Assembly: GCA_003164215.1 (NCBI GenBank)
Contig: PLSR01000003.1
Coordinates: 28,892-92,891, forward strand
DNA length: 64,000 nt
Direction of reading: 5' to 3'
From: Candidatus Kaiserbacteria bacterium
Lineage (GTDB): Bacteria > Patescibacteriota > Minisyncoccia > Phycocordibacterales > UBA2100
A model generated the notes under the pieces. That model had not been told where the DNA came from and made no database searches. It saw only the letters and a list, made by a program, of their open reading frames with translations. This document shows positions 5,820-54,758 of the stretch, one piece after another. Every line of letters starts with the position of its first letter. Positions within the stretch are counted from its first letter, which is position 1. The translations under genes were made by a program, and so were the position numbers.

Positions 5820-7316
5820 TCAATTTTGTTTGAGTACCCACCGCTGCTTGATATCTCGCCTGAAATACGCCGGGTCTTCATAGGGCCAGTACACAATTTT
5901 GGGGACGGATCGGGCACCGAGAAAGTTGCACAGTTCACGAAACTCTGAATTCTTCTCTTTGAGATTCTTTATGATCTCGGCGAGCAATAACGCTGAGAAC
6001 TCGGGGCTGGCCTCTCTCCCCTGACGTAACTCGACGTTGATCTCAAGATATTGGTCGTGCGAGTCATCAAAACGCGTAGCAAGTGTCAAGCGGCCCGACA
6101 GGAACGGGGCGAATGATTCTCCGAGCAGGACCTCTTTGACGGTCTCCGGATAGACTTGTAATCCGTACAAAGTCGCCGAGAGATCACTACGCTCATACAC
6201 ATAGACGAACGGCAACAATCGAAGATCATCTGGGATCTTTGCGGCCTTCATTTCCTTCAAAAGATCGACACCGTGATCCGCCATGATCCGTTCAATTTCA
6301 GCGAATGTATACACGCCGCCATTGTCGCCGATCGCATACCGCATAAGCGGCATGGCGCTATCCGCCGAGAGTAGCAATTGCCCTTCGTGTTGTTCGAATG
6401 CAGTGTAGGCGGGAATGTTCTGCGCGAGTGTCGGCGTTTTGCTGATATCGCCGAACAAGGTCTTAAAAATTTCAGGTTTTTGTATCGCGATCTGACGAAC
6501 ACGAATAGAGAGCGGTGTCTCGAACGCCATCGTTCCCACGTCCGCGCTCCCGTATACATTCATTGTATCGGTCAGCGGGTTCTTTATGTTCGCCTTTTTC
6601 ACGACGTAATCTCGAAATTGCTCGGTGAATGCTTCTGCCGCGAAAAGAATTGCCACTTTGTGATTCTTTAAGGAAATACCTGCCTCGGCCGCACCGTCGA
6701 GGACATCTTTGATGAACGGCGGATACCCGGTAAGAATGATCTGTTTGTAGCTGGGAGCAAGTTTTCGAAGTATTTTCAGTATTTCGGTGCGGTTGATGCC
6801 CGGAGTAATGATGGATATCGGATGCCCGCGTTTTGACATAAGCTCGAAGGCTTGGTATGTCAACAGGCCGCCGATCCAGATCCCCATGCCGAAGCATATG
6901 ATGACAAGCGTAGATTCCGTTTTCGAGAGCGAAGTCTGAAGAAAAAAGCGCTCATGGATCAGCGCAGATTGTTCGTCGATGGTCGGTGACCGTCCGAAGA
7001 AGAACGGTTCCCCGGTCGAGCCGGATGTTGAAGTAAGCACATGTGGCGTCGCCAGTGAGCCGCCCCAAAAAAGATCTGCATATTTTGCAGGGCGTAGATA
7101 GTTGTCCTTTGAGGTAAGTGGTATGCGCAACAGATCGTGGTCTGTCTTGATATCCGCAGCTCGAGTCCCTGCATTTTTCAGGAATTTCTTATATGCCGGC
7201 ACTTCTGCCGCCATTTTGTGGAACAATCGCACGAGCGTAGAATCGGCCCGTGGAGATTCTGGGCTACGAACCTTCTTCGTACTCTTTTTCAGCCGTGGGC
7301 GAACCGATTGTTGCAT
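5820..7316 (-). CDS. adenylate-forming enzyme, PaaK/CapK/F390-synthetase-like (ANL superfamily)
   Basis: 498 aa; P-loop-like TSTSGSTGEPFFF (A3 motif) and YGSAD (A5-like) motifs. Confidence 0.6.
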   Translation of the reverse strand: MQQSVRPRLKKSTKKVRSPESPRADSTLVRLFHKMAAEVPAYKKFLKNAGTRAADIKTDHDLLRIPLTSKDNYLRPAKYADLFWGGSLATPHVLTSTSGSTGEPFFFGRSPTIDEQSALIHERFFLQTSLSKTESTLVIICFGMGIWIGGLLTYQAFELMSKRGHPISIITPGINRTEILKILRKLAPSYKQIILTGYPPFIKDVLDGAAEAGISLKNHKVAILFAAEAFTEQFRDYVVKKANIKNPLTDTMNVYGSADVGTMAFETPLSIRVRQIAIQKPEIFKTLFGDISKTPTLAQNIPAYTAFEQHEGQLLLSADSAMPLMRYAIGDNGGVYTFAEIERIMADHGVDLLKEMKAAKIPDDLRLLPFVYVYERSDLSATLYGLQVYPETVKEVLLGESFAPFLSGRLTLATRFDDSHDQYLEINVELRQGREASPEFSALLLAEIIKNLKEKNSEFRELCNFLGARSVPKIVYWPYEDPAYFRRDIKQRWVLKQN

Positions 7317-16766: not shown

Positions 16767-18281
16767 TTATTGGCCTTTTGCAGTGGAGGACGTTAGCGGT
16801 CCGGTGATTTCGATCTTGATCTTTGAGGGATCGCTCGGAAAACTACTGCTCCAGAATGGCTCTATACGGGCTCGCGCCGCCTCGATCCCGGGGAATCCCC
16901 CAATGACGGTCTGGAAGACGCTCTGGTCACGCCCTGCGAGCGCTTTCGCGAGGGCAGTCGTGTCAATGCTCCAGAGTATCTGCGCAGATCCGACGAGCGA
17001 AAAGTCGATAGGGGCCGTCCCGAGGGCGACCGGCGTTGTATTGGTCGGCTGTGCTCCATACCCTGTCCCGCCGATCACTTGGACCGGAGTGTTGTTCGTA
17101 TCGATCGCCATCGTCTGAGCAATAACTGCCGCAAATGCGTCTGAAGCAAATACCGGCACCTGGATGTGCACACTTTCCCCGATCGTCACCTGACTGCTTG
17201 TCGCAACTACATCAGGAAGGTCGCTGTAGGTTATCTCTGCAAGACCCGTGAATGCGACCGAACCCGGTACATTTTGCGATTGAACGTATTGCGCTGCCCG
17301 TTGTGCCAGACGCGTGCGCATATCTGAAACGGCAGCCTGGCGAATACTCGCGGAAATGCCGGGTTGTGTTCCTGAAAAGCCCCCGGTCATCGAGCCGGAC
17401 GATTGGGCATAAATTCCCGCATACATAGCGGCATTGGACTGGAGGCCGGGAACAGTGAGGCGTGGAGTAGGTCCGATGTTGTACTGCTGACCAACTTGAT
17501 CTGCGAATACGGTGACCGTCACTTGACCGGGGGTCGAACCTTGTTTCCCCGGGATGACGACATCCGCTGGAACACGGAATATCAGGCCGGCAGGCGTCTG
17601 GAAGCGGGTGTCCTTGATGAGTTTGACGCTCGCCGTGGAATAATTGTTGTACACCGTGATGGAGCCCGATGCTTTCATCTGGGTCTCAGTCGTACCGTTG
17701 CTCTGAACCGTTTCAGAATCCTGTAAATCGGTCGTTGCGACGGTATATGCGAGCGTCCCAGTTGCGGCACTCGATGCGGGGTATGCGCTAAATTCAGAGG
17801 TCTGGTCGAAATTCACCGTTTGCGTCCGTGCTGTCAGAGTGACCGTCGTGGAACGGAACATGAAAAGCGCCAGAAATCCAACTACAACCACCCCGATGAC
17901 CGCAAGGATCCAAATCCATACACGGGAATACTTGGAACGCGGCTTCGGAGGCAATCCGCGGCCCGACCCCGTGGACGGTGTCTCGCCGAGTTCGTTCGTC
18001 GATGATCGATAGCGTGCTCGGGGCGGCATGTTTATGTTGCGAATACCACGCGCCGGAGCGGCATCTATTGTTGAAATGTCATCATCGTCGTACTCAGGAG
18101 CTGACTGAGCCATGACAGACGGCTGCTCCGGTTGGTTTGGAGGAGCGATTGGAACCTTTCGCGTTGTCGGGCGAATCGGACGGTCACCCGATGGCGGGAC
18201 AATATCCTGAAAATAATCTTTGGCCATATGACTCAGTAGTATACCACGCACCCGGTCAGGACTGCTCTTCGGTGTTGACAA
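16767..18281 (-). CDS. hypothetical single-pass membrane protein (Pro-rich cytoplasmic N-terminus, TM, large Thr/Ser/Gln-rich extracytoplasmic domain); possible PilN/PilO-like
   Basis: 504 aa; TM segment VWIWILAVIGVVVVGFLALFMF near residue 130; INMPP motif resembling the PilN INLLP motif; 26-nt overlap with the upstream actin-fold gene. Confidence 0.5.
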   Translation of the reverse strand: MSTPKSSPDRVRGILLSHMAKDYFQDIVPPSGDRPIRPTTRKVPIAPPNQPEQPSVMAQSAPEYDDDDISTIDAAPARGIRNINMPPRARYRSSTNELGETPSTGSGRGLPPKPRSKYSRVWIWILAVIGVVVVGFLALFMFRSTTVTLTARTQTVNFDQTSEFSAYPASSAATGTLAYTVATTDLQDSETVQSNGTTETQMKASGSITVYNNYSTASVKLIKDTRFQTPAGLIFRVPADVVIPGKQGSTPGQVTVTVFADQVGQQYNIGPTPRLTVPGLQSNAAMYAGIYAQSSGSMTGGFSGTQPGISASIRQAAVSDMRTRLAQRAAQYVQSQNVPGSVAFTGLAEITYSDLPDVVATSSQVTIGESVHIQVPVFASDAFAAVIAQTMAIDTNNTPVQVIGGTGYGAQPTNTTPVALGTAPIDFSLVGSAQILWSIDTTALAKALAGRDQSVFQTVIGGFPGIEAARARIEPFWSSSFPSDPSKIKIEITGPLTSSTAKGQ

Positions 18282-19410
18282 GTGCCCCCGCGATCAAAAG
18301 TTCGACATCGGGCGGTGTAGCAGCATCGAAAGCAATGAGATGTGCAAGCTCCGCGCGACCGAGTGCATGAACGGAAAACGGCTGCGCCGTGAGCGTGCAT
18401 TGCGTGAAATCGATGCGCGCAAAAAAGGTCGTGAGCCATGGGACAAGATCGCTGTGGGTCACCAAAATAAGATCGGGTGGAAGACGCCTCGGTACTGCCA
18501 CTTTCGTCAACGCTTCTCCATATACCCGCGCCAGATCGATCTCGACACGTGCCATTGATGCCGTCACTGCATCGCAGACATCGCCCGTACATTCATCGCG
18601 CTCGATCATGCGTAAAAGAGAAAGCGTTTCCTCCGGTGTGCTTTTTTCGGCAATTCTTTTAACGATGGTGCGTACTCCTTCCGCGATCTGCAGATGCTGC
18701 ATCGCAAGACCGTCACGTATGACAAGCACATTGGTCGCCTCTGCCGTGACCGCAAGGATCACGCAATCTTTGCCGATATTCGGGATGACATTCATCGCCG
18801 AGACGAGCGCACGCGAGCCGGAACGCAACGTCAGTTTCGCACCCGGGAAAAGATGTGCAAGTGATCCAGCGACCTCTTTTTGTATCGTATCATCGCAATC
18901 GCTTAAGAGTACTGCTACGGAGATCCGATGAGCCATTTTACCGATGGGAGATCCGGTGGGATAGCCGTTGAGCTCAACGCGGACGACGGTAGATTCGATC
19001 AGGCGGTCTTTAACTATTTCAGTGTCCGCGCCAATAGCTTTTTGAGCGGACTCCTGGATCATCGCGCCGGTGACCCGCGTCTCTTTATCGAACGTAGTTG
19101 TGGCTCGCACCGTATGTGAACGTATCCAGGGGGCGTCAATGACCGCATACACTTCAGTGATCTTGTGTCCCTTATGTGGACCGATCGCGTATCGAGCGAG
19201 CAACTTCTGACCTGCATCTGACAGGCTTGCCAAGACACCTGTTCTCATCGCGCTTTCCGTGCGATCTTCGAACGGTAAGGTCACACGCTCGGCTTCGATG
19301 ACAGTAGCCGGTCCGTCGTTGTTCATAATGAGCAACGCAATACCGGCGCTCGCGCTTCCGATATCCGCAACGGCAACTACTCTCTTTGATGCGATCGTTC
19401 TTCCGAACAT
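18256..19410 (-). CDS. ASKHA (actin-like ATPase) fold protein, PilM/FtsA-like or Ppx/GppA-like
   Basis: 384 aa; N-terminal phosphate-1 loop VVAVADIGSASAGIAL and later glycine-rich ATPase motifs; family assignment uncertain. Confidence 0.5.
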   Translation of the reverse strand: MFGRTIASKRVVAVADIGSASAGIALLIMNNDGPATVIEAERVTLPFEDRTESAMRTGVLASLSDAGQKLLARYAIGPHKGHKITEVYAVIDAPWIRSHTVRATTTFDKETRVTGAMIQESAQKAIGADTEIVKDRLIESTVVRVELNGYPTGSPIGKMAHRISVAVLLSDCDDTIQKEVAGSLAHLFPGAKLTLRSGSRALVSAMNVIPNIGKDCVILAVTAEATNVLVIRDGLAMQHLQIAEGVRTIVKRIAEKSTPEETLSLLRMIERDECTGDVCDAVTASMARVEIDLARVYGEALTKVAVPRRLPPDLILVTHSDLVPWLTTFFARIDFTQCTLTAQPFSVHALGRAELAHLIAFDAATPPDVELLIAGALVNTEEQS

Positions 19411-19447: not shown

Positions 19448-21394
19448 CTACTGGATGACCGCTTTAATGCGACGAACACCCGCCGCGACAGCTTCTTCTT
19501 TTTGGATCTTGAATGTGCCGGCAAGTTCGCGCGTATTGGATACGTGCGGTCCGCCGCAAAATTCTATCGAGAATGCTTGATCGTACTGAGGGTTTGACTC
19601 ACTGGCGCTCGCTGGCCCGATCGAATACACAGAGACCATATCGGGATATTTCGCACCGAATTCATGTTCGGCGCCAAGCTTCTCAGCATCTTCCCTTGGA
19701 AGCGTGCTGCGGACGACGGGTAATGCCGCCTTGATCTCGTCGTTGACGATCTTCTCTACTTCAGCGATCTGATCCGGAGTCATTTTCACTGTGTGCGAGA
19801 AGTCGATGCGCAAACGTTCGCTCGTGATATTGCTTCCGCGTTGCTTGACGTGATCGCCGAGAACTATTTGCAACGCCTTCAGCAACAAGTGGTGCGCGGT
19901 ATGCAGACGCGTCGTCGCTTCGGAATGATCGGCCAGTCCCCCTTTGAATTTTTGTTCACTGCCCGCGCGGGAAAGCTCCTGATGACGCTTCATATGTTCT
20001 CGAAAACTTGCCTCGTCGACTCTGATGCCGCGCTCTTGCGCGATCTCCATCGTCATCTCGAATGGAAAACCGTATGTAGTGAATAGCATGAACGCCTGCT
20101 CACCGGAAATGGTCTTAGCATCTTGCGTAATTTTTTCGAATTCTTTCATTCCGGTCACGAGCGCATGACCGAATTGCTTCTCCTCTTTCCAAATTTCCGA
20201 AGTGATCGTCTCATACATCTCTTCTGCTGCCAGCTCGGGATACGCCTCTTTATATTTTTCAATAATGATCACGGCGCAGCGATTGAGCATGCTCTCCTCC
20301 TTCTGGTCGTTCTCCACGCCAAGTTTCTGCGCATGCTGTGCCGCACGGCGCAAAAGGCGACGCAAGACGTAGCCACGATCGGTATTGCTTGGTCGCACGC
20401 CATCGGCAAGCATGAATACAGAGGCGCGCATATGATCGGCGACGATCCGATAGGATCTTATCCACGCCACATCATCGTATGATCTGCCCGAGAAGTGGAC
20501 CAAGAGATCAATAACATCTTTGAATGCGTCGATCTGAAAAACGTCCGCATTATCATTGCTCGCCGCCGTAATACGTTCCAATCCCCCGCCGAAATCAACG
20601 TTTTGCTTCGGGAGGAGTCCGAAGGAGCCATCCTCTTTTTTAAGGTATTGCATGAAGACCGAATTACCGATCTCCATGAATCGCCCGCAATCACAATTCG
20701 GATGACAATTTGGCCCATAGGCCTCATCATGCGGCAGTCCAAAGTCATAAAAGACCTCACTATCGGGGCCGCCCGGCTCACCCGCCGGCATTTTGTCCGG
20801 CGTGCCGGCACGGCTCCACCAATTTTTCTTCGCTTCGTAATAGAAAATGCGTCCGCCTTGCATGCCTTTCTCATAGCCGTCAGCCTCGGAACCGATCTCA
20901 ACGGTCTTTGCTTCGATCCCTTTGCCAGCGAATAACTCCTTCCAGATGTCGGTCGCCTCAGTATCGCGCGGCAAAATATTTTTTTCATCGCCCATGAATG
21001 CCGTCACATAGAGCATGTTCGGGTCGATACCGATCTCATCCGTCAAAAACTCGAAGAACCATTTCAGCTGCTCCTTCTTGAAATAATCGCCCAGTGACCA
21101 GTTACCGAGCATCTCGAAGAACGTTGTATGACGGTTGTCACCAACTTCTTCGATGTCTTCCGCGCGAAAGCTCTTTTGACTGTCGACGAGACGGCTCCCC
21201 TTCGGATGTGCTTCTCCGAGAAGATACGGCAAAAGCGGCTGCATGCCGCTGCCAGTGAAAAGCGTTGTTGGATCATTCTGTGGTACCAGGGGCGCCGACG
21301 GGATCTCTACGTGTCCGCGCGCCTTGAAATACTCAAAATATTTTGTACGAACATCGTTAACATTCATGGCGCTCAGCGTATCGTATTTTGCCAA
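19448..21394 (-). CDS. alaS: alanyl-tRNA synthetase, short form (catalytic, tRNA-recognition and editing domains; lacks C-Ala domain)
   Basis: 648 aa; class II AlaRS N-terminus (FTGSGMQP...); editing-domain H..H and C..H motifs. Confidence 0.9.
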   Translation of the reverse strand: MAKYDTLSAMNVNDVRTKYFEYFKARGHVEIPSAPLVPQNDPTTLFTGSGMQPLLPYLLGEAHPKGSRLVDSQKSFRAEDIEEVGDNRHTTFFEMLGNWSLGDYFKKEQLKWFFEFLTDEIGIDPNMLYVTAFMGDEKNILPRDTEATDIWKELFAGKGIEAKTVEIGSEADGYEKGMQGGRIFYYEAKKNWWSRAGTPDKMPAGEPGGPDSEVFYDFGLPHDEAYGPNCHPNCDCGRFMEIGNSVFMQYLKKEDGSFGLLPKQNVDFGGGLERITAASNDNADVFQIDAFKDVIDLLVHFSGRSYDDVAWIRSYRIVADHMRASVFMLADGVRPSNTDRGYVLRRLLRRAAQHAQKLGVENDQKEESMLNRCAVIIIEKYKEAYPELAAEEMYETITSEIWKEEKQFGHALVTGMKEFEKITQDAKTISGEQAFMLFTTYGFPFEMTMEIAQERGIRVDEASFREHMKRHQELSRAGSEQKFKGGLADHSEATTRLHTAHHLLLKALQIVLGDHVKQRGSNITSERLRIDFSHTVKMTPDQIAEVEKIVNDEIKAALPVVRSTLPREDAEKLGAEHEFGAKYPDMVSVYSIGPASASESNPQYDQAFSIEFCGGPHVSNTRELAGTFKIQKEEAVAAGVRRIKAVIQ

Positions 21395-24001: not shown

Positions 24002-24682
24002 TTACAGCCAGTCGATAGGCTTTTTATGGTGCGATTCGAGATACGCGTTCACGCGACTGAAATGCTTATTGCCGAAAAATCCATAATGAGCGGAGAACGG
24101 CGACGGATGTGCCGACTCCAGTACGAGATGTTTCGTTCGATCGATGTGCTCGCCTTTTGCTTTCGCGTAATTGCCCCACAACATGAAGACGAGATTTTCG
24201 CGCTCATCGGAAAGCACTTTGATCGCCGCATCGGTGAATTGTTCCCATCCCTTACCTTGATGTGATCCGGCATGGTGTGCATCGACGGTCAGCGTTGCGT
24301 TCAGTAAAAGAACTCCTTGCTTCGCCCATCGTTCCAAGTCACCCGTACGATGGATCATCGGTCGAGAAAGATCGCTCTCGATCTCTTTAAATATATTTTG
24401 AAGGGAAGGCGGGAGATTGATGCCATCGCCCACTGCAAAGCACAGACCGTTGGCCTGCTTCGGTCCGTGATACGGATCCTGACCGAGAATGACCACTTCG
24501 ACATCATCGAAGGGGCAGAGATCGAAGGCACGAAAAATGTTCTTCGGCGACGGATATACGATCGCATTTTGATACCGTTCACGAACGAACGAGGTCAGTT
24601 CTTGAAAATACGGCTGTTTGAATTCTCCGTGCAAATGCGCTAGCCACGACGGATCGATCTTAACCTCTTTGGTGTCGCCCAT
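24002..24682 (-). CDS. ung: uracil-DNA glycosylase, family 1
   Basis: ORF trimmed to internal Met; GQDPYHGP water-activating motif and HPSPLS-like C-terminal motif. Confidence 0.85.
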   Translation of the reverse strand: MGDTKEVKIDPSWLAHLHGEFKQPYFQELTSFVRERYQNAIVYPSPKNIFRAFDLCPFDDVEVVILGQDPYHGPKQANGLCFAVGDGINLPPSLQNIFKEIESDLSRPMIHRTGDLERWAKQGVLLLNATLTVDAHHAGSHQGKGWEQFTDAAIKVLSDERENLVFMLWGNYAKAKGEHIDRTKHLVLESAHPSPFSAHYGFFGNKHFSRVNAYLESHHKKPIDWL

Positions 24683-24692
24683 GCAGCGCATC

Positions 24693-24947
24693 TTACAACG
24701 CGCCTTCTGCCTTGAGAATCGCCTTCTTACGAAGCGCACCTCCGCGATTGTAGCTGCCGAACGAGCCATCACTTTTGATGACACGGTGGCACGGTATATC
24801 CGGATCGAAATTCGTTCGCATAATTGCCCCGACCGCGCGAGCGGCTTTCTCATTGCCGGCTTTTTTTGCAACTTCCTTATACGTCATTGTCTTCCCTTTC
24901 GGAATTTTCCTGACGACATCTCTGACCTTGTCTGCGAAGGTTTTCAT
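24693..24947 (-). CDS. minimal O6-alkylguanine-DNA alkyltransferase (MGMT C-terminal domain only)
   Basis: 84 aa; PCHRV active-site motif with the cysteine retained, so a potentially active transferase rather than an ATL. Confidence 0.7.
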   Translation of the reverse strand: MKTFADKVRDVVRKIPKGKTMTYKEVAKKAGNEKAARAVGAIMRTNFDPDIPCHRVIKSDGSFGSYNRGGALRKKAILKAEGAL

Positions 24948-25744
24948 ATCGCGAGTGTACCATTCGTCCCTATTTTAGCCTTGGCAGCCTGCGCTTGGAG
25001 CGCCTTCCCTGCTGCTTCGCGATAGTGGCAGTAGTCGCAGTCCTCGCCAGCTGGAGGGATTTGTTCCGAATCAAGGCACGCCTTCAATTCGACAAGAGCA
25101 CCGTCGATCCAGTCGGTCGAACCTTTGTACGGCACGAGCGTCAATTCAAAATCGAGACGTCCATCGAATGCGTCACGATCTTTTGTCGCATTCGCGTAGA
25201 ACCAGTACCCGGTATCAGAGACCATGAATCCATTCTGACGCAAGAGCCATTGATAGATTTCGATCTGACGCTTGTACCCGCGGTGCCACTCTTCATCGAG
25301 GCTTTCGATCTTCCCATCTTTGCTTGTCGCCTTGTAATCGATCACGATCAGTTCGCCGTCTTTGTTTACCCAAATATCGTCGACACCGCCACGTACCGTG
25401 AGGCCGGTCGCTTTGTGAACGAATTTAACGCCTTGATTCAACGCGTTGCGCCACTCATCCATTCGCTCGTGCGCGAACGGTATGGCGTCGAGACCGTATG
25501 CCTTCGCGAGCGGATGCTGCGTACCGTTCGCGCGGTGCGTGTCGAGCTCTTTCTTTAAGAGCGCATCGACCGCCGAGTTAAGATTGAATGGATAGCCGGG
25601 CGGACGGGCGGTGCCGAGTTTGTTGTCGATATAAAAACAGCGCTGGCACTCCATGAAAAGATCGATCTTCGAACGCGAGAGCGTCCACTTTGATCCCCCG
25701 TAGCACCAGTCGGGATTGCGCTTGGGCTTATAGAAATCGCTCAT
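24944..25744 (-). CDS. PD-(D/E)XK nuclease, Cas4/RecB-like (DUF83-type) with Cys cluster
   Basis: 266 aa; DIWVNKDGELIVIDYK (D..ExK-like) nuclease core; N-terminal C..C and C-terminal C...CDYC cysteines suggesting an Fe-S cluster. Confidence 0.65.
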   Translation of the reverse strand: MSDFYKPKRNPDWCYGGSKWTLSRSKIDLFMECQRCFYIDNKLGTARPPGYPFNLNSAVDALLKKELDTHRANGTQHPLAKAYGLDAIPFAHERMDEWRNALNQGVKFVHKATGLTVRGGVDDIWVNKDGELIVIDYKATSKDGKIESLDEEWHRGYKRQIEIYQWLLRQNGFMVSDTGYWFYANATKDRDAFDGRLDFELTLVPYKGSTDWIDGALVELKACLDSEQIPPAGEDCDYCHYREAAGKALQAQAAKAKIGTNGTLAI

Positions 25745-25757
25745 ACGGCCCAGTATA

Positions 25758-26588
25758 TCAGATACCGCTCAAGAGCTTCGCTTCTTCGATCACTTTTGGA
25801 ATCCGATCGGGCTTCACACCGTATTCCTGAAGGATATGCGGCGCTTGGATCTGCTTACAGAGAACGATCTTCTGATCAAGGAGACGGCGTTTCTCACCAT
25901 CCGTCAGGGTCGTGAGACACGTGAGCGGGTGTACGCCGGCCTCTTCAATGAGATTTAAAAGGCCGCGTGTGCGCGGATAATCCCAACCGATGATGCGAAG
26001 GTTGGAACATTGCGCATAGCGGATCGCATTGCGAGTGAATCGCGTATTGGTGATGAGGCAGCCTTCATCGACCCGAGAGCTCGCTTCCGGCGCTTGTCGC
26101 AGATCGTCATAGCGAGCCTTCACATAGAGCGCGTCTTTGATGTCGGTCTTTCCACCGGGATCGTTATGAAATTTCGCCTCAATGCCGACACGATTCCCAT
26201 CTTTTTCCATGAGAACGTCGATCTCGTGCGTCACGCAGCGCCCCATCAAGGTGACATCGGTTCGTACGCTCCAACCATGCCCGCGAAATACTTCAGCGAG
26301 AAAACGTTCGAACGGAAATCCGGAGGGGCCAAGCGCGAAGACCGCGCGCTTCATCGAATAGCGAGCGGCGACCGGCGGCTTTTCTTCTTGCTTGAGTATA
26401 TCGAACGCGTGTCGATAAATTTCTTCCGTCATTATGCCGGGATGCAGGTCGTGCAGTACGCGCGCGACCACCTTCGCGCGCATCGTTGACGTCGCACCCG
26501 CGTGAGCGAGCGAGTGCTCTAATTTCGCCGGGTCGAAGAGCTCAAGCTGGCCGTCGGCTTTGGTGATCGAGATCTGATCCATGAGCAT
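25758..26588 (-). CDS. ATP-cone domain fused to Mrr-like restriction endonuclease catalytic domain
   Basis: 276 aa; N-terminal ATP-cone-like segment (ISITKADGQLELFDPAKLEHSL...); C-terminal Mrr_cat-like D...E.K (HEIDVLMEK...GIEAKFH). Confidence 0.6.
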   Translation of the reverse strand: MLMDQISITKADGQLELFDPAKLEHSLAHAGATSTMRAKVVARVLHDLHPGIMTEEIYRHAFDILKQEEKPPVAARYSMKRAVFALGPSGFPFERFLAEVFRGHGWSVRTDVTLMGRCVTHEIDVLMEKDGNRVGIEAKFHNDPGGKTDIKDALYVKARYDDLRQAPEASSRVDEGCLITNTRFTRNAIRYAQCSNLRIIGWDYPRTRGLLNLIEEAGVHPLTCLTTLTDGEKRRLLDQKIVLCKQIQAPHILQEYGVKPDRIPKVIEEAKLLSGI

Positions 26589-26661: not shown

Positions 26662-27726
26662 TTATTTTTTTGATTCATCGATCACTCCGCCTCCGAGACA
26701 CAAGTCGCCATCATAAAGCACGAGTGATTGACCGGGCGACGCGATATGCGGCGTGTTGAATACACATCGGATCCCACCGTCGGCCTCGGAGATCTCTGCT
26801 CCGACCGGCATTTCGTGATACCGAGTTTGCACTTCGCAACGGTGTGGAAGCGTCGGAGTCACTCCGATCCAATGCATATCCGATATCTCCGCTGATCTTC
26901 GCGCCGCGTCTTGGCGGTTCATCGACACGGTCAGTGTGTTGGCATCGGTATCGACGTCAACGATGAAATGTGCGGCACCAGACGAGCTATCTGTGATAGT
27001 GAACCCGTGCCGCTGCCCGATCGTATACAGTGCCGCCCCGTCATGCCCCCCAATGGTCTTTCCGTTCACATCGAGTACATTTCCGGGATCGACCGTAATG
27101 TATCTGCGCAGAAAATCCCGCATCGAAACATCGCCGACAAAACATAATCCCTGACTATCGGGTTTCTCGCTGACCGGTAATCCAAAACGACGCGCCTCGT
27201 TGCGCACAGCGGGTTTTTTTATACCACCGATCGGGAACATGATCTTCGTCAGATCTTCCGAAGACGCACGGTACAAAAAATATGACTGGTCTTTCGCAGG
27301 ATCAATTCCACGCAGGAGATCGGTGCGCGACCCATCCTTGCGAGATGCTTGTGTGCGGGCATAGTGTCCTGTCGCGATTGCATCTGCACCCTCCGCGAGC
27401 GCCCACCTCAGGAACGAGCCGAACTTAATGCGTTCGTTGCAAAGGACGTCTGGATTCGGGGTGATACCGCGACGGTAGTCGGCGATCATGGAATCGATCA
27501 CCTGCCGCTTATATTCCTCTGAAAGATCGACCTCGCGAAATGGAATTGAAAGAGCGGCGCAAACACGCATCGCGTCGAGGCGATCTTCGCGCCATGTGCA
27601 TTCAATGAACTCCGGCTGCCAGATCCTGATGAAAACACCGGTCACATCATATCCCTGCTCTTTTAACAATGCTGCAGACGTCCCTGAATCCACGCCACCC
27701 GAAAGCCCAACAAAAACCTTTTGCAT
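26662..27726 (-). CDS. mnmA: tRNA-specific 2-thiouridylase MnmA
   Basis: PP-loop VGLSGGVDSG; start set to internal Met (MQKVFVGLSGG), since the 16 upstream codons of the ORF lie inside an inverted repeat. Confidence 0.85.
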   Translation of the reverse strand: MQKVFVGLSGGVDSGTSAALLKEQGYDVTGVFIRIWQPEFIECTWREDRLDAMRVCAALSIPFREVDLSEEYKRQVIDSMIADYRRGITPNPDVLCNERIKFGSFLRWALAEGADAIATGHYARTQASRKDGSRTDLLRGIDPAKDQSYFLYRASSEDLTKIMFPIGGIKKPAVRNEARRFGLPVSEKPDSQGLCFVGDVSMRDFLRRYITVDPGNVLDVNGKTIGGHDGAALYTIGQRHGFTITDSSSGAAHFIVDVDTDANTLTVSMNRQDAARRSAEISDMHWIGVTPTLPHRCEVQTRYHEMPVGAEISEADGGIRCVFNTPHIASPGQSLVLYDGDLCLGGGVIDESKK

Positions 27727-27745
27727 GTTGCCACAATACAACAAG

Positions 27746-27870
27746 GAGCTGTGGCATGCACTGTTTTGGAGCATCGCCTAACGAGTCAGAAATTCAGTAG
27801 CTAGTCCGTCGCAAGACAAAAGATCTCACGCCGCTCAATCGTCGCTCCAAAACAGTGCATGCCACAGCTC
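27746..27870. repeat. 125-bp element with perfect 27-bp terminal inverted repeats (MITE-like / long stem-loop)
   Basis: GAGCTGTGGCATGCACTGTTTTGGAGC at 27746-27772 is the exact reverse complement of 27844-27870; 71-nt spacer; sits between the mltG stop and the mnmA start. Confidence 0.6.
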
Positions 27871-28929: not shown

Positions 28930-30408
28930 CTATTTGGGCAGGTTCGCCGGCGGCTCTGCTTTTGTCGCCGGGATGCGTTCGAGTCCGGGCACCATGATGC
29001 CCGCGCTCGGGAAATGGAACATCGTTGCGATGACCTCATTCGTCATGACCTTATAGGGAACGGTCCACGGCGCGAAGAACGCGCAGCGACGTCGATACGC
29101 ATCGATATAACGGCGGATCAAAATAGTATCGCGGATGCCCATAAAATCCTGCCAGGGGTAATCGAATGGATTGTGTCCGCGCGTCGGGCGTAGCTCGTTG
29201 AGATAACCGGGATTGTTGATGGATTTCCAAAACCAACGCATACCATTAAGCGTCGCGCCATTGTAGACAGCGTTCTCGGCGATATAGAGCCCGCGCACCG
29301 CGACGTCGAATGGGATCTTGCCCAATTGTCGTTCCATGATCCGCATCTGTTCCGTCTGGCTCCACGTCGGGCGGGGAAATCCGTATTTGCGATCGTCGGT
29401 CTCCGGTGCGTCTTCCTTTCCCGGTGTTAATGAGGCTTCTTTGCGGATCTTTTGAATTTCTTTCTTCACACGTTCCATCCACAGCTTGTCGCCGGCTTTC
29501 GGATTGAAGAGACTGTCTTGTTTCGCGGACGCTCGAAAAATGATCTGCACCCAGACCTGTTCGCCCTTATTGAGGGAGCTCAAGTACTCGAATATCTGTG
29601 CGATCGGATCTACTTTGAATTCCTCTTTGGGATCTTTGTCGAGCTCGAATTCGACATAGGTCTTCAGCGGAAAGGCATCGCTCTTCGTGTAGAGATGCTC
29701 ATTGACAAAGGCTCGGTGTTTGCTGGGATCGAATTTGAACTTGGACGCATAGTCCTCTGCTTGGTGGATCTCTATCTCGGGAAATTGCGCGTAGAGCGCC
29801 GCCTCAACGACGTGACGGTGGCTCTTCCAGCACCAAATGAACATATGAACTTCACCACCGAAAGATGCGTACTCGAAGGAATACCAGACACGCACCTGAC
29901 CATGCCAGATGCGATGCAGGAATGCGCCCTCGCCGGAGGTGTTGTATAAGCTCGCGAGCGCGACCTCCATCGCCCGCGGCGATTTTGTGATATCGCGCGG
30001 GATCTTTATATCGAGCACGACCGGGTCGCGGCCGGATATGAAAAGCCCCTGTACATACCAGACCCATACCGACCACGATGCCAGGATGAGAACGATCGGT
30101 AACCAGAGCGGCGCTGTTCCCGCAAGCCATTCGAGCGTGAAGAGCGATAGTCCCGGGATCTCGAACGCGAGAATGAGCAGGAGACCGATGAACGTGACCC
30201 AGAGCGACAAGGCGCGCGATACGCCCCATTCGGCGAGCCATTCAAAAATGAACCACCCGAACCACGTATTGTGCACAAGGTAGTCGAATGACGTTACCGG
30301 ATACTGCTCATGATCGGCATGGTCGCCATGCGAACCGCCGAACAGCCCGTCCTCAAAGATGGTACCGCCGAATACGCCCGACGGAGCTTCATGTGCGTCG
30401 TCTGCCAT
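28930..30408 (-). CDS. hypothetical membrane protein (N-terminal TM region plus ~300-aa soluble domain)
   Basis: 492 aa; Trp/Phe-rich TM helices at residues 45-130; no family recognised. Confidence 0.45.
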   Translation of the reverse strand: MADDAHEAPSGVFGGTIFEDGLFGGSHGDHADHEQYPVTSFDYLVHNTWFGWFIFEWLAEWGVSRALSLWVTFIGLLLILAFEIPGLSLFTLEWLAGTAPLWLPIVLILASWSVWVWYVQGLFISGRDPVVLDIKIPRDITKSPRAMEVALASLYNTSGEGAFLHRIWHGQVRVWYSFEYASFGGEVHMFIWCWKSHRHVVEAALYAQFPEIEIHQAEDYASKFKFDPSKHRAFVNEHLYTKSDAFPLKTYVEFELDKDPKEEFKVDPIAQIFEYLSSLNKGEQVWVQIIFRASAKQDSLFNPKAGDKLWMERVKKEIQKIRKEASLTPGKEDAPETDDRKYGFPRPTWSQTEQMRIMERQLGKIPFDVAVRGLYIAENAVYNGATLNGMRWFWKSINNPGYLNELRPTRGHNPFDYPWQDFMGIRDTILIRRYIDAYRRRCAFFAPWTVPYKVMTNEVIATMFHFPSAGIMVPGLERIPATKAEPPANLPK

Positions 30409-30520: not shown

Positions 30521-31546
<1,026 letters not shown>

Positions 31547-43462: not shown

Positions 43463-44086
43463 TTAATTGATCCCCATCATATAGACAATCGTGAAAATGA
43501 ATATCCAAACGATGTCGAGAAAATGCCAGAACAGGCTCATGAGCATCAGCTTGCGAAGATTGCCACGAGTCAGTCCACGCATCACGATCGAAGTCGTTAG
43601 TACGATCATCCAGACGACGCCGAGCGCTACATGCAGCCCGTGCGTGCCGACAAGCGTGAAATACGATGAAAGGAATCCGCTCGTCTGCCATCCAACGCCG
43701 CCCGCGACGAGCCGTCCGAATTCGGAAAGTTCCATGGCAACGAACGATGCGCCCAAAAGTGCAGTTACACCGAGCCAAAACACGACGAATCGCTTGCTAT
43801 TTTTGTGAGCTGAAAGTAGCGCAAGCCCGCAGGTGAAGCTGCTCGACAAAAGCAAGATCGTTTCAGTGAGGATATATGGCGCGTTGAAGATGTCTTTCCC
43901 TGCAGGTCCGCCGAATGTGTTGCCGCGCAAAACTGCATAGACCGCAAAGAGGCTCGCGAAGAGCACGAAGTCCGTCATCAGGAACATCCAGAAGCCGAAG
44001 ACTGTCGTATTATCGGCGGCACGAGATTCGATAGGAAGCTTCTCGTTCCCTATGGTCAATGATTCATGTGCTATAGAGCTTTTCAT
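43463..44086 (-). CDS. cyoC: cytochrome o ubiquinol oxidase subunit III
   Basis: 207 aa; 5 TM; conserved GTHGLHV motif. Confidence 0.8.
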
Positions 44087-46068
44087 ATAGTTGCGTGGCG
44101 ACTATGATGTGCCGCTTCATGGACGCGTATGTGTTCCGCCGAGATGATCTCTTCAGTATCGTCGTCAAACATGCGCAACAGCATCGAAACAAATTCGCCG
44201 ATGAGTCCAAGGATCGCGAGCCACCAGATGTGCCACACGATCCCGAAGCCAATGAGGAAAACGAATCCCGCTATGAAAATTCCGATCGCCGAATTTCTCG
44301 GCATGACGATATCTTCGTAACGATGCGCGGCAACGGTCCCCGATTGTTTCGCAGTCCAGAACGCATCACGTCCGTGTACGACTGGCAGCACGGCGAAGTT
44401 ATATGCGGGCGGCGGCGAAGAGGTCGACCATTCAAGCGATCTGCCGCCCCACGGATCTCCCGTCGTATCGCGATTCTTGTGCCGATTCTTGATGCTTACG
44501 TACATCTGGATCACTTGGCATATAAGTCCGAGACCAATGATCGCGGCTCCGATCCCTGCGACGATGAACAAGGGCTGCCATCCGAGATTTGCAGCGTAGT
44601 GATCGAGGCGGCGCGTCGCACCCATGAATCCGAGAATATACAGTGGGCCGAAGGCAAGAATGAAACCGACAAGCCATGCCCAAAATGCACGTTTGCCCCA
44701 GCGTTCATCGAGTGTGAATCCGAATATCTTTGGGAACCAAAAAGTGAAACCCGCGAAGTAGCCGAAAAGGACGCCGCTCACGATCATCGTATGGAAATGC
44801 GCGACGAGAAAGAGGCTGTTGTGCAGTTGGAAATCCGCCGCAGGCTCGGCGAGCAACACTCCCGCTACACCACCCAAAGTGAAGAGGACGACGAAGCCCA
44901 TGAACCAGAGCATCGGCGACGTGAATCGAATGCGTCCGCGATACATCGTGAAGAGCCAGTTGAATATCTTCACACCCGTCGGTATCGCGATCACTGCCGT
45001 CATTATGCCGAAGAACGCGTTCACGTCGCCGCCCGCGCCCATGGTGAAGAAGTGATGCAGCCACACGGTGAACGAAAGGAACACGATCGCGATGACCGAG
45101 AGCACCATCGAGGTATAGCCGGCAAGTTTCTTTCCCGAGAATACCGGAACGACTTCGGAGAATATCCCGAATGCCGGCAAGATCAAGATATAAACTTCCG
45201 GATGACCCCACGCCCAGATGAGGTTCACGTACATCATCATGTTGCCTCCACCGCCCGCAGTGAAGAAGTGCATACCGAGTGTGCGATCGAGCGCAAGCAA
45301 CGCCAAAGTCGCGGTCAAGATCGGAAATGCGAATACGACGAGCGACATCGCCCCGAGGACCGTCCAGCTGAACATCGGCATGCGCATAAAGGTCATGCCG
45401 GACGCGCGATTCTTGACGATCGTGACAAGAAAATTGATGCCACTAAGCAGACTTCCGAGCCCGCCGATCTGCAGGCTCCATATCCAATAATCGACGCCCG
45501 AGGTCGGGCTGAACGCGAGCTCGGAAAGCGGCGGATACGAGAGCCAGCCCGCCGTCGAGAAATCACCCACGATGAGCGAGAGATTGATGAGCGCGGCGCC
45601 AGCGACGAAGAGCCAGAAACTCACTGAATTCAAGAAGGGGAACGCGACGTCGCGCGAGCCGATCTGCAACGGCACGACGAGATTGATAAGGCCGAACATG
45701 AGCCCCATCGCGACGAAGAAGATCATGATGGAACCGTGCGCCGAGAAGATCTGTTGGAAATGGCTCGCGCTTAATATTCCCTGTGATGCGCCGACGGATG
45801 TCGCCTGTTGTGCACGCATCAGGAATGCATCTGCACTGCCGCGCACGAGCATGACGACCGATACCGCGATGTACATCACGCCGATCTTCTTGGGGTCGAG
45901 CGAGGTGAACCAATGCTTCCACAGGTAACCCCATTTTTTGTAGTAGGTAATAAGGAAAATTATGGCAAAGCCGACGAGCACCATGAATATGCCTCCGCCC
46001 ATAGCTATCGGGCTTTGCGGAAAGACCGACCACGAGAGCTTGCCAAATATGAATTCAGTCCAGTTCAT
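44083..46068 (-). CDS. cyoB: cytochrome o ubiquinol oxidase subunit I (heme-copper oxidase catalytic subunit)
   Basis: start set at [12 protein letters not shown] (ATGA overlap with the cyoA stop); [17 protein letters not shown] and heme/CuB His ligands. Confidence 0.9.
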
Positions 46069-47045
46069 TGCATTGGTGCGTCGCCCATTGGCATATTCAT
46101 GCCGTTCATATCGTTTGAAGATGCCGACGTCGGTGCCAGCGTCGCAGCCATATCCGCCGCTGACATATATTTCATGGTGATCGCAGTATACAGGCTCGCA
46201 TCTATTGGCGCATAGATCGCAACGGCGTTGTACGTGCTCGGCGCAACGAGAGACGCGTATACGGCATTTGTGAGCGGCGTTGATGATGCCTTTACGCCGT
46301 TGATCCATGATTCAAAATCACTCTCTGAAACCGCGTGCACAGCAAATGTCATCCCTGCGAATCCCGCTCCACTGATGTTTCCCGAGACGCCGTTGAATAC
46401 GCCCGCATTGCTTGCGAGCAGATTAAGCTGGGTCGTCATGCCCGGCATGACCATGATCTGGCCGCCCAAGGCCGGTATCCAAAACGAATTCATCGGCGCG
46501 TCGGCGGTCAATTCAAAATGGACCGGACTGTTCACCGGGATCTCAAGATAATTGACCGTTGCGATACCCTCCTCCGGATAAATGAAAAGCCATTTCCAAT
46601 CGAGCGCGACGACTTGGATCGTCATCGGTGCATTCGATCCCTTAAGCGGCACATACGGATCAAGCGCATGCGCGCTCTGCCACGCGACGACGGCCAATAC
46701 CGCAATGATCGCCGTCGGTGCGAGCCACCACGAAAATTCGAGCCATGCGCTCGAGTGATCCCATTCGGGGCGATGATGTTTGGCGGTCTCCGGATTGGAT
46801 GCGCGATATTTCCAGGCGAACCAAAAGAGAAGCACGAAGACCGGCACGACGATGATCGCGCACAAGAGCAACGTGATATACATCACTGACAGTTCCCCAC
46901 TGGCGACCGGCCCCTGCGGCTCAAGCACCGGAATATTCGCTCCGTGCAAATACGCGACCGTCGCCCACACCGCCGCGACAAGAGCCAGCACCACTGCCAC
47001 GATGAATGATCGGTTCATCATTGTGGGATTAAGTGTAGCATCCAA
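46065..47045 (-). CDS. cyoA: ubiquinol oxidase subunit II (no CuA cysteines)
   Basis: 326 aa; two N-terminal TM then cupredoxin fold lacking the CuA Cys/His motif, which indicates the quinol-oxidase type. Confidence 0.8.
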
Positions 47046-54620: not shown

Positions 54621-54758
54621 ATGTATACGTATTTTCCACTTAGAAACTCGGCTCTCAAGTACTTTCGTCCACACCAACTCCGACCCCCGCTTTGCACTAG
54701 GGGTTGGCTTGTCCCGAGGGAGCTCGCTCCTTTTCGGGGTATGGGCACTATACCATAG

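Follow-up and report, generated by a model that had tools for sequence, protein, structure and literature searches.

A candidate nucleotide-gated nuclease, an ATP-cone fused to an Mrr-type domain, in a probable housekeeping block of the Paceibacteria chromosome

To our knowledge, the only understood role of ATP-cones is that of switching ribonucleotide reductases (RNRs) and NrdR. The cone works in these proteins through ATP/dATP-driven oligomerisation (PMC4390871, PMC5794259), with a reductase as the output domain in RNRs and a Zn-ribbon repressor in NrdR. A small-nucleotide sensor joined to a PD-(D/E)XK nuclease is known from Can2, Card1 and Cdn1, in which the sensor is a CARF domain for cyclic oligoadenylates and the setting is a type III CRISPR locus. 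Mrr_cat nuclease domains are typical of restriction enzymes and are also found in Archaeoglobus fulgidus AF1548 (PDB 1Y88), whose residues D38, E51 and K53 are predicted to be catalytic (PMC1821046). Solo Cas4-family genes are enriched in CPR, where they are vertically inherited under ordinary purifying selection, and some of those in DPANN adjoin R-M systems (PMC5704561). Among O6-alkylguanine-DNA alkyltransferases (AGTs), the forms without the N-terminal domain described in a 2023 review are fusions and ATLs only (PMC10779285).

The locus compared here with these systems lies in a 64-kb window, the whole stretch of DNA that was analysed, and reads on the minus strand in the order mnmA, ConeMrr, Cas4L, MGMT, UDG and then an M16 peptidase gene. 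A first-pass annotation had called a UDG, a minimal MGMT, a Cas4-like nuclease and an ATP-cone-Mrr fusion, and these four domain calls, with their coordinates and strand, proved correct, the domain matches being far beyond chance.

26662..27774, minus strand: mnmA, a tRNA 2-thiouridylase gene (PF03054/PF20259/PF20258), upstream context outside the repair set
25758..26588, minus strand: ConeMrr, 276 aa, with ATP-cone, Mrr_cat and AF1548-like C-terminal domains (Pfam, PDB 1Y88, AF2 model)
24944..25744, minus strand: Cas4L, 266 aa, a predicted Cas4/RecB/Exo5-type PD-(D/E)XK nuclease having four cysteines as a putative metal site (PF12705)
24693..24947, minus strand: MGMT, 84 aa, a predicted stand-alone C-terminal domain of O6-alkylguanine-DNA alkyltransferase, or minimal AGT (PF01035, TIGR00589)
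24002..24691, minus strand: UDG, 229 aa from M61 of a long ORF, a predicted family-1 uracil-DNA glycosylase, Ung (NF003589, TIGR00628, PF03167)

The same annotation described the four genes as co-oriented with 4-nt overlaps. They do share one strand, but only one of the three junctions overlaps, through an ATGA common to the Cas4L stop and the MGMT start; ConeMrr and Cas4L are 13 nt apart, and MGMT and UDG 1 nt. Gaps of 73 nt and 14 nt separate the block from mnmA and from the M16 peptidase gene, respectively. Since nearly all genes in the window lie on the minus strand, co-orientation is itself weakly informative. The block is flanked by mnmA, mltG, M16 peptidase genes and alaS, and its GC content of 0.52 is the same as that of its flanks.

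Relatives of ConeMrr are 274 aa long, so its true start is probably M3 at 26582, inside the 276-aa call that starts at 26588. Three domains follow from the N-terminus.

26346..26570, minus strand: ATP-cone domain, residues 7-81 (PF03477, profile A2, Foldseek)
25980..26321, minus strand: Mrr_cat PD-(D/E)XK catalytic domain, residues 90-203 (PF04471)
25767..25976, minus strand: AF1548-like C-terminal helical domain, residues 205-274, aligned to AF1548 residues 120-196

The Pfam ATP-cone model matched ConeMrr marginally, although above its cutoff (27.5 bits against a GA of 25.8). Profile A2, built from 35 N-termini of the family, matched only NrdR, NrdD and NrdA among natural PDB proteins, and the AF2 model (pLDDT 96, pTM 0.90) superposed on the cones of NrdR and RNRs with an rmsd of 1.8-2.3 Å over 82-87 residues in Foldseek, the predicted fold having the beta-hairpin and four helices of an ATP-cone. 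By Pfam, family profile and fold, the N-terminus was confirmed as an ATP-cone, the same sensor domain as in class I and III RNRs and NrdR, and the fusion is a true one in which the output domain is a predicted nuclease.

The marginal Pfam score is one of several points in favor of a reading in which the four are unrelated housekeeping genes, neighbors by chance in a compact genome, and the cone has no ligand control but is left over from a structural or oligomerisation role. Next to K10, where the 'KR' motif of RNRs has its Arg, the ConeMrr family shows no conserved Arg (E. coli NrdR has Ser there), archaeal AF1548 lacks a cone altogether, and in many relatives the block is interrupted by inserted genes. 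However, sequences that are only 26-48% identical all keep K10, G13 and K22, and nearly all (≥90%) keep F18, T54 and Y77, which would argue for a conserved ligand site in the cone. The invariant lysines are presumably equivalent to K9 and K21 of NrdA. Moreover, all 150 listed 50%-identity cluster representatives carry the cone, bar a few fragments, and Cas4L and MGMT stay tightly spaced in nearly every locus that has them, as detailed below. We regard a lack of any coupling as rather improbable.

The nuclease domain scored 39 bits with PF04471 (cutoff 21), and its site columns E94, D124 and E137-x-K139 are invariant in the family. Residues 96-274 matched AF1548 with E=3e-28, at 32% identity and a TM-score of 0.79 on the target, indicating that the nuclease and C-terminal domains are homologous in the two proteins, and D124, E137 and K139 align with D38, E51 and K53, the same D/E-x-K triad as predicted for AF1548. 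AF1548 is a structural-genomics protein of unknown function and sheds no light on the mechanism of ConeMrr. On the C-terminal domain, PF22357 reached a sub-threshold 14.8 bits, although it is recorded on relatives, and two helix-hairpin-helix-like motifs, AGVHP and YGVKP, were seen by eye in the sequence. Judged from sequence and model, ConeMrr combines in one chain an ATP-cone, an intact PD-(D/E)XK site and a C-terminal domain of the AF1548 type.

After AF1548, the nearest Foldseek neighbors of ConeMrr included the modification-dependent enzymes MspJI and AspBHI (about 1e-4; E. coli Mrr is likewise of the PD-(D/E)XK family) and the ligand-gated effectors Can2, Card1 and Cdn1, with NucS/EndoMS found as well. 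The first-pass annotation had framed the genes as a DNA repair/defense islet. Taken as defense, this would make ConeMrr a nuclease of type-IV-like or abortive-infection kind that is freed by phage-perturbed pools of ATP or dNTPs, and Cas4L and the others an antiviral module. Besides the Mrr_cat domain and these fold neighbors, the defense framing can draw on an N6/N4 DNA methyltransferase gene inserted beside ConeMrr in one close relative (L003, 87% identity) and on the DPANN solo Cas4 genes near R-M systems. Nevertheless, neither the domain search nor the AF2 model revealed an Mrr_N winged helix, an SRA-like domain or another modified-DNA reader on ConeMrr, which has an ATP-cone in the place where type IV enzymes have their reader. 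Its resemblance to Can2, Card1 and Cdn1 is one of design and of nuclease fold, whereas its sensor is an ATP-cone and its context is non-CRISPR. PADLOC returned nothing for ConeMrr, MGMT or UDG and only sub-threshold Cas4 models, and the 64-kb window contains no CRISPR-like array and no cas genes. ConeMrr homologues were absent from 50,697 phage records, full-length ConeMrr occurred in only 2 of 72,556 plasmids, and no viral protein had the whole three-domain architecture. ConeMrr is also a conserved single-copy backbone gene, unlike the sporadic defense-island cargo typified by Mrr and type IV enzymes. Together with the fixed chromosomal position, the AlaRS-like conservation and the flank-like GC content of the block and the metabolic contexts of the family outside CPR, these results do not bear out the defense framing, which we consider very unlikely.

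Cas4L had been described as a Cas4-like Fe-S nuclease, and its assignment to the Cas4/RecB-type nucleases was upheld. PDDEXK_1 (PF12705) matched at 2.5e-13, the RecB-type motifs D122/D123, D136-Y-K138, Q160 and Y164 are invariant, and Foldseek matched RecE, Cas4 SSO0001, Cas4-Cas1, AdnA, MGME1 and Exo5. The match to Cas4 itself did not hold, as both specific models fell below threshold (PF01930, 14.6 against 22.7; TIGR00372, 32.8 against 65). Four cysteines, 97-100% conserved, are arranged as C33-X2-C36 ... C236-X2-C239 with no Cys at +6 from C239, that is, as CX2C...CX2C, whereas canonical Cas4 has one N-terminal Cys and a CX2CX5C. Cas4L shares the D, DxK and QxxxY motifs, a putative cysteine metal site and the fold with solo Cas4 and other PDDEXK_1 nucleases (Cas4 SSO0001, the AddB and AdnA nuclease domains, Exo5, RecE), but it differs from solo Cas4 in its cysteine pattern and in being translationally coupled to a minimal AGT. 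As first noted, it stands apart from any cas genes, its neighbors being ConeMrr and MGMT.

The 84-aa MGMT covers 80 of 81 positions of PF01035 (1.3e-28) and scored 73 bits with TIGR00589 (cutoff 46). Its C-domain is shared with Ogt, Ada-C, human AGT, ATLs and, among proteins that have no N-domain, AGT-EndoV and C. elegans AGT-2. Aligned to human AGT, residues Y23, R37, N46, C53, H54, Y66 and E81 correspond to Y114, R128, N137, C145, H146, Y158 and E172, so that the active-site Cys53 in PCHRV, the Arg finger, the Asn hinge, the Tyr and the Glu of the His-water-Glu network are as in AGTs. The retained cysteine and the reading as a minimal alkyltransferase domain, both proposed initially, are upheld by this full predicted catalytic constellation. 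An ATL identity was rejected, since the active-site Cys is kept: neither PWHRV nor PAHRV was found, and PCHRV is present in this protein as well as in each of the 15 relatives compared, which are 83-100 aa long. The N-terminal structural domain of AGTs is entirely absent, and the protein is unfused; with a start that overlaps the upstream gene by 4 nt and a length of 84 aa, there is no space for such a domain. The isolated C-domain of human AGT is poorly active alone, so the predicted activity of the 84-aa protein is not assured. UDG passed both equivalog models (NF003589, 320 bits against 223; TIGR00628, 276 against 186), was also matched by PF03167 and has GQDPYH and HPSPFS motifs in its translation, which identify it as a predicted family-1 uracil-DNA glycosylase (Ung).

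The genes were found linked in relatives, a check proposed in the first-pass annotation. The order DUF8128-mltG-mnmA-ConeMrr-[mgtC]-Cas4L-MGMT-[UDG]-...-alaS is shared across Paceibacteria in 80 species genomes, with ConeMrr identity down to about 43%. Median identities to close relatives were 69 for ConeMrr, 64 for Cas4L, 75 for MGMT and 71 for UDG, compared with 72 for AlaRS, 58 for MnmA and 52 for MltG; in distant CPR, they were 58 for Cas4L, 61 for MGMT and 47 for AlaRS. By these identities, the four proteins are conserved to the same degree as AlaRS and evolve slowly. Cas4L and MGMT form a tight conserved pair: in 29 of 30 loci, the gap between them is -49 to +79 nt. A UDG gene followed the pair within 30 nt in 9 of 14 loci. 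The UDG slot held a family 1 enzyme in 6 loci and a family 4 enzyme in 19, an alternation that looks like in-situ displacement.

The company of ConeMrr bears on a further explanation, in which it would be a lesion- or structure-specific endonuclease acting with UDG, AGT and Cas4L, for instance by cutting at abasic or alkylated positions, and the cone would license incision when dNTPs suffice for resynthesis. Among the 58 CPR loci with enough downstream flank, Cas4L followed ConeMrr in 35, MGMT in 29 and a UDG of any family in 25; 46 loci had one or more of the three within 4 kb. ConeMrr directly adjoins Cas4L in about 11 loci and a family-4 UDG gene in several others (L035, L057, L071). The fold neighbor NucS/EndoMS, the HhH-like look of the C-terminal domain and the AGT-EndoV fusion, a precedent for an AGT C-domain with a nuclease (PMC10779285), all fit such a role. 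On the other hand, the strongest CPR neighbor of ConeMrr is mnmA, upstream in 57 of 64 loci; the linkage may be mere synteny; unrelated membrane genes (mgtC, DUF7282) often interrupt the block and, in the closest relatives, part ConeMrr from Cas4L; and none of the repair genes lies beside ConeMrr outside CPR. A dedicated repair role for ConeMrr is unlikely, if less so than either of the explanations above. In streamlined genomes, the CPR linkage of ConeMrr to repair genes is inseparable from general synteny.

Our preferred reading, to which we assign a probability of roughly 0.55, is that the four genes belong, as a compact segment, to the conserved chromosomal backbone of Paceibacteria (Kaiserbacteria-like CPR), serving DNA-maintenance housekeeping and non-mobile, and that ConeMrr is an adenine-nucleotide-switched nuclease. 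Ung would excise uracil, the minimal AGT would reverse O6-alkylguanine by suicide transfer to Cys53, and Cas4L would process DNA ends, the tight functional unit being Cas4L-MGMT(-UDG). Adenine nucleotides would bind the cone and thereby switch the nuclease activity of ConeMrr, most likely through ATP/dATP-dependent oligomerisation by analogy with RNR and NrdR. Gating by ATP or dNTPs, as first suggested from the domain fusion, would be reasonable, and the best reading of ConeMrr would be a nuclease that is gated by adenine nucleotides and linked to repair or to nucleotide economy.

The family comprises 5,995 homologues in at least 597 species genomes, and the searched literature held no functional study or biochemical data on any member. 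Outside CPR, a beta-CASP/RMMBL nuclease gene lies directly downstream of ConeMrr, with stop and start abutting or overlapping (L045, L075, L076, L083, L084, L087, L088), and is followed in L045, L076, L083 and L084 by thymidine-phosphorylase-family and PRPP-synthetase-like genes. The phosphorylase is also described as a thymidine/AMP-phosphorylase-family enzyme. The wider surroundings include PFK, 2-hydroxyacid dehydrogenase, Usp, P-type ATPase, phosphoketolase, acetate kinase and PPK2 genes, and the beta-CASP, phosphorylase and PRPP-synthetase-like proteins of a Bacteroidota chromosome share 67-73% identity with those of a Chlamydiota plasmid. These contexts point to nucleotide and energy metabolism over an antiviral role. 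In CPR, a YfbR-like HD 5'-deoxynucleotidase gene directly follows ConeMrr in 6 loci and lies within 4 kb in 10. No homologue of the thymidine-phosphorylase-family, PRPP-synthetase-like, beta-CASP or YfbR-like proteins lies in the 64-kb window. Clues to the substrate conflict, the beta-CASP/RMMBL partner suggesting RNA and the HhH-like C-terminal domain DNA.

CPR generally lack nucleotide synthesis and rely on salvage (PMC7304191). We tentatively suggest that ConeMrr frees nucleotides from nucleic acid, with the deoxynucleotide or energy state feeding back on it, as a salvage-side counterpart of RNR control. With a similar likelihood, below that of our preferred reading, the family would be the first ATP-cone-controlled nuclease, feeding salvage under an ATP/dATP (or adenylate) switch as a core CPR enzyme and, in Bacteroidota and Chlamydiota, as part of a horizontally mobile catabolic cassette with beta-CASP, phosphorylase and PRPP synthetase.

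The four-gene islet as such would be ordinary conserved repair housekeeping, and solo CPR Cas4-family genes are already in the literature. The point of interest is the ATP-cone nuclease family, in which the RNR/NrdR sensor is joined to an intact nuclease site, a design found across thousands of genomes and subject to strong purifying selection. Should the cone gate cleavage, genome-reduced symbionts would be matching the degradation of DNA or RNA to the state of their nucleotide supply, and ATP-cone allostery would extend to a new enzyme class. A smaller point of note is the 84-aa alkyltransferase domain, conserved as a stand-alone protein, which would amount to a natural 'SNAP-tag-like' unit of minimal size; another is its tight pairing with a Cas4-type nuclease.

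The first-pass annotation had described 24002-26588 as an islet of four co-oriented genes with 4-nt overlaps. The four-gene group was confirmed with minor corrections, in that the genes are co-oriented but, of their three internal junctions, a single one is a 4-nt overlap. The genes, with mnmA upstream, are as follows.

27774-26662, minus strand, mnmA, then a 73-nt spacer to ConeMrr
26588-25758, minus strand, ConeMrr (276-aa ATP-cone and Mrr_cat nuclease protein), then a 13-nt spacer
25744-24944, minus strand, Cas4-like nuclease (Cas4L), its stop overlapping the MGMT start by 4 nt (ATGA)
24947-24693, minus strand, MGMT-domain protein of 84 aa, then 1 nt to UDG
24691-24002, minus strand, UDG (uracil-DNA glycosylase), followed after 14 nt by an M16 peptidase gene

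The minus strand carries almost all genes of the 64-kb window, so the shared orientation of these four has little meaning, and their GC content (0.52) equals that of the flanks. In a scan of 23.8-27.9 kb, promoter and terminator counts were not above shuffled expectation and no convincing minus-strand site was found between the four genes, making it possible that they are co-transcribed. A 170-kb metagenome contig (ENA ERZ27254231) contains the identical window sequence, and the window's closest relatives are Kaiserbacteria and Paceibacterota genomes.

The fusion of an ATP-cone to an Mrr-type nuclease core, proposed earlier for ConeMrr, was borne out by Pfam, a family profile and a predicted model. 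Pfam scored the ATP-cone at 27.5 bits (GA 25.8) and Mrr_cat at 39 bits. AF1548 (PDB 1Y88) aligned to residues 96-274, C-terminal domain included (E=3e-28), and its predicted catalytic residues D38/E51/K53 (PMC1821046) have the invariant D124/E137/K139 as counterparts, indicating an intact PD-(D/E)XK site; E94 is likewise invariant. A PDB search with the cone as a single sequence gave nothing but noise and a family profile had to be used; one built from 35 family N-termini retrieved, among natural PDB proteins, only NrdR, NrdD and NrdA. The marginal Pfam score is backed by this profile and by the confident three-domain predicted model (pLDDT 96, pTM 0.90), which superposes on NrdR and RNR cones. 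Cone residues K10, G13 and K22 do not vary among sequences only 26-48% identical, and F18, T54 and Y77 hardly do; the family does not conserve the Arg of the RNR 'KR' motif, which E. coli NrdR lacks as well. By our reading, the C-terminal domain contains two helix-hairpin-helix-like motifs, which suggests binding to the DNA backbone. The family comprises 5,995 homologues; clustering at 50% identity gave 429 clusters with E <1e-30, and at least 597 species genomes encode a member. Database labels are only 'restriction endonuclease' or 'ATP cone domain-containing protein', and the searched literature gave no functional study of ATP-cone proteins with nuclease, Mrr or restriction domains, of COG1787 or of the cassette gene set described below. 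The NrdR box ACACWATATATWGTGT, allowing up to three mismatches, gave two distant matches and none near ConeMrr, and hence no sign of NrdR control of the gene.

ConeMrr homologues were followed in 80 species genomes, onto which the window's proteins were mapped. At Bacteroidota and Chlamydiota loci, none of the neighbours seen in the candidate phyla (CPR) bacteria, here Patescibacteria, was present. Instead, a beta-CASP/RMMBL metallo-beta-lactamase nuclease directly follows ConeMrr at seven loci (L075 and the six listed here), with stop and start abutting or overlapping, and thymidine-phosphorylase-family and PRPP-synthetase-like proteins come next in L045, L076, L083 and L084. The cassettes, each in its own locus coordinates, are as follows.

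L045, 5986-10651, ConeMrr cassette
L076, 5995-10610, ConeMrr cassette
L083, 1972-6597, ConeMrr cassette on a Pontibacter plasmid
L084, 8001-12608, ConeMrr cassette on a Criblamydia plasmid
L087, 7001-9177, ConeMrr cassette
L088, 7001-9264, ConeMrr cassette

The three downstream proteins are 67-73% identical between Owenweeksia (Bacteroidota) and the Criblamydia plasmid (Chlamydiota), implying that the cassette moved horizontally as a unit. Its setting consists of fermentation and stress genes, with phosphofructokinase, 2-hydroxyacid dehydrogenase, Usp, P-type ATPase, phosphoketolase, glycogen phosphorylase, acetate kinase, PPK2 and MgtC among the surrounding genes. A gene for a YfbR-like HD_3 5'-deoxynucleotidase lies right after ConeMrr in six Paceibacteria genomes (L033 6846-7451; also L050, L062, L066, L068 and L071) and within 4 kb in ten. 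CPR bacteria generally lack nucleotide synthesis and depend on salvage (PMC7304191). Taken together, the non-CPR contexts, the YfbR-like neighbour and this dependence link the family with nucleotide and energy metabolism.

Given the intact nuclease site and the conserved cone, gating of the nuclease by ATP or dNTPs, as first suggested, is plausible by analogy. Adenine nucleotides on the predicted cone would switch the nuclease, most likely through an altered oligomeric state, the switch used by the cones of RNR and NrdR (PMC4390871, PMC5794259). Our committed guess, to which we give a probability of about 0.3, is that ConeMrr is a salvage nuclease with feedback from dATP or the adenylate state. 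Hints as to its substrate point both ways, to RNA from the beta-CASP/RMMBL partner and to DNA from the helix-hairpin-helix-like domain. Experiments on the ATP-cone nuclease family would be worthwhile and cheap.

The Cas4-like protein passed PF12705 (PDDEXK_1) and did not pass the Cas4-specific models. Nuclease motifs D122/D123, D136-Y-K138, Q160 and Y164 are invariant, and the four Cys of C33-X2-C36 ... C236-X2-C239 are kept at 97-100% (C239 in 37 of 38 sequences), while the third C-terminal Cys canonical for Cas4 is absent. Its predicted model, of medium confidence (pLDDT 75), matched RecE, Cas4, AdnA, MGME1 and Exo5, and a PDB sequence search gave no match. Its family is very large, and conservation is very high (78% identity or more among the best 120 clusters). 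As noted at first reading, the gene stands apart from cas genes, and neither TRF nor a direct-repeat scan found a CRISPR array in the window. Past work describes solo Cas4-family genes in CPR bacteria as vertically inherited under ordinary selection, and PF12705 as having no major CRISPR-associated branch (PMC5704561).

PF01035 matched the 84-aa protein over 80 of the model's 81 positions (1.3e-28), and TIGR00589 was passed as well. In alignment with human AGT it keeps Y23, R37, N46, C53, H54, Y66 and E81 (human Y114, R128, N137, C145, H146, Y158 and E172), and on these catalytic residues we classify it, as the first-pass annotation had suggested from its PCHRV cysteine, as a minimal alkyltransferase domain and not a cysteine-less ATL. 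Truncation or pseudogenisation was ruled out, since the overlapping upstream gene blocks any N-domain and all 15 of 15 relatives are equally short (83-100 aa) with PCHRV. According to a recent review, AGT activity does not strictly need the N-domain, and the forms it lists without one are fusion proteins and ATLs only (PMC10779285); a free-standing C-domain is a modest variant. The UDG scored 320 bits against family-1 Ung equivalog models (cutoff 223) and contains both GQDPYH and HPSPFS. UvrA (51963-54677, minus strand) and UvrB (55690-57774, minus strand) are also encoded in the window, placing nucleotide excision repair alongside the minimal alkyltransferase. The minimal AGT and the Cas4-type nuclease paired with it offer a lesser target for experiments.

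In Patescibacteria, the order DUF8128-mltG-mnmA-ConeMrr-[mgtC and/or DUF7282]-Cas4L-MGMT-[UDG]-...-alaS is kept down to 43% ConeMrr identity, with mnmA upstream in 57 of 64 loci; the islet is thus neither absent from relatives nor scattered. Within 4 kb downstream of ConeMrr, 46 of the 58 loci with enough sequence had one or more of the three repair genes and 12 had all of them (Cas4L 35, MGMT 29, any UDG 25). In 29 of 30 loci the spacing between Cas4L and MGMT is -49 to +79 nt; in 9 of 14, UDG begins within 30 nt after MGMT. The UDG slot holds a family 4 enzyme in 19 CPR loci (e.g. L029 8193-8795) and a family 1 enzyme in six, including the window (24002-24691), in what looks like non-orthologous displacement in place, a hint that repair function is selected at this position. 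The main rival to a salvage role, that ConeMrr is an endonuclease dedicated to repair alongside UDG, AGT and Cas4L, would draw on this linkage, which the Bacteroidota and Chlamydiota loci do not share; we consider it unlikely.

Nearest relatives carry an MgtC-family membrane gene between ConeMrr and Cas4L, which makes the window a compacted form of the arrangement. An MgtC-family protein, sometimes with a DUF7282 protein, occupies this position in 28 of 58 CPR loci and not in the window; Psychroserpens also has an MgtC gene near ConeMrr. Positions recorded for these genes are L015 6832-7416, L024 6857-7869 and L086 3304-4572. In the closest genome (L003, ConeMrr 87% identical), an N6/N4 DNA methyltransferase (PF01555, 1230-2090) is inserted between ConeMrr and Cas4L instead. 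Loss of mgtC as the sole origin of the adjacency is partly true in close relatives and is not the whole story, since ConeMrr and Cas4L adjoin directly in about 11 distant loci. The conserved unit is the whole housekeeping backbone and not a self-contained cassette. That the genes are uncoupled and the cone vestigial is a doubtful reading, less probable than a repair endonuclease; intervening genes and the missing Arg stand on one side, the tight Cas4L-MGMT pair and invariant cone residues on the other. Upstream of the block, a protein with sigma-70 region 4 and HARE-HTH (30521-31546, minus strand) is conserved at about 340-345 aa in relatives.

Median identities in close relatives were 69% for ConeMrr, 64% for Cas4L, 75% for MGMT and 71% for UDG, matching AlaRS (72%) and above MnmA (58%) and MltG (52%); in distant CPR, Cas4L (58%) and MGMT (61%) exceeded AlaRS (47%). 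Judged from these identities, the four genes are under housekeeping-grade purifying selection and not an arms-race pattern. PADLOC gave no match for ConeMrr, MGMT or UDG, tblastn found no phage homologue of ConeMrr, only two of 72,556 plasmids matched it at full length, and a viral fold library gave only partial matches, to the nuclease or to RNR cones, with the full architecture found in no viral protein. Together with the slow evolution and backbone synteny, these results weaken the defence half of the original repair/defence interpretation, a role we regard as quite improbable, and leave the repair half standing. As part of a CPR chromosome, the locus is conserved and ordinary.

Elsewhere in the window, the alanyl-tRNA synthetase (19448-21394, minus strand) is short, about 640 aa; its recorded domains are the catalytic and tRNA_SAD ones only, and the C-terminal region usual in this enzyme is apparently missing. 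Four large minus-strand ORFs (384-504 aa) had no match in a Pfam scan (E<=1e-4).

16767-18281, minus strand, ORF without Pfam match
18256-19410, minus strand, ORF without Pfam match
5820-7316, minus strand, ORF without Pfam match
28930-30408, minus strand, ORF without Pfam match

The last has only a weak precomputed DUF8128 match and belongs to the conserved DUF8128-mltG-mnmA block upstream of ConeMrr. CPR bacteria typically lack a respiratory chain, and the window encodes a 741-aa heme-copper oxidase subunit I (44083-46308, minus strand; PF00115, 475 bits), which is unusual for this group.
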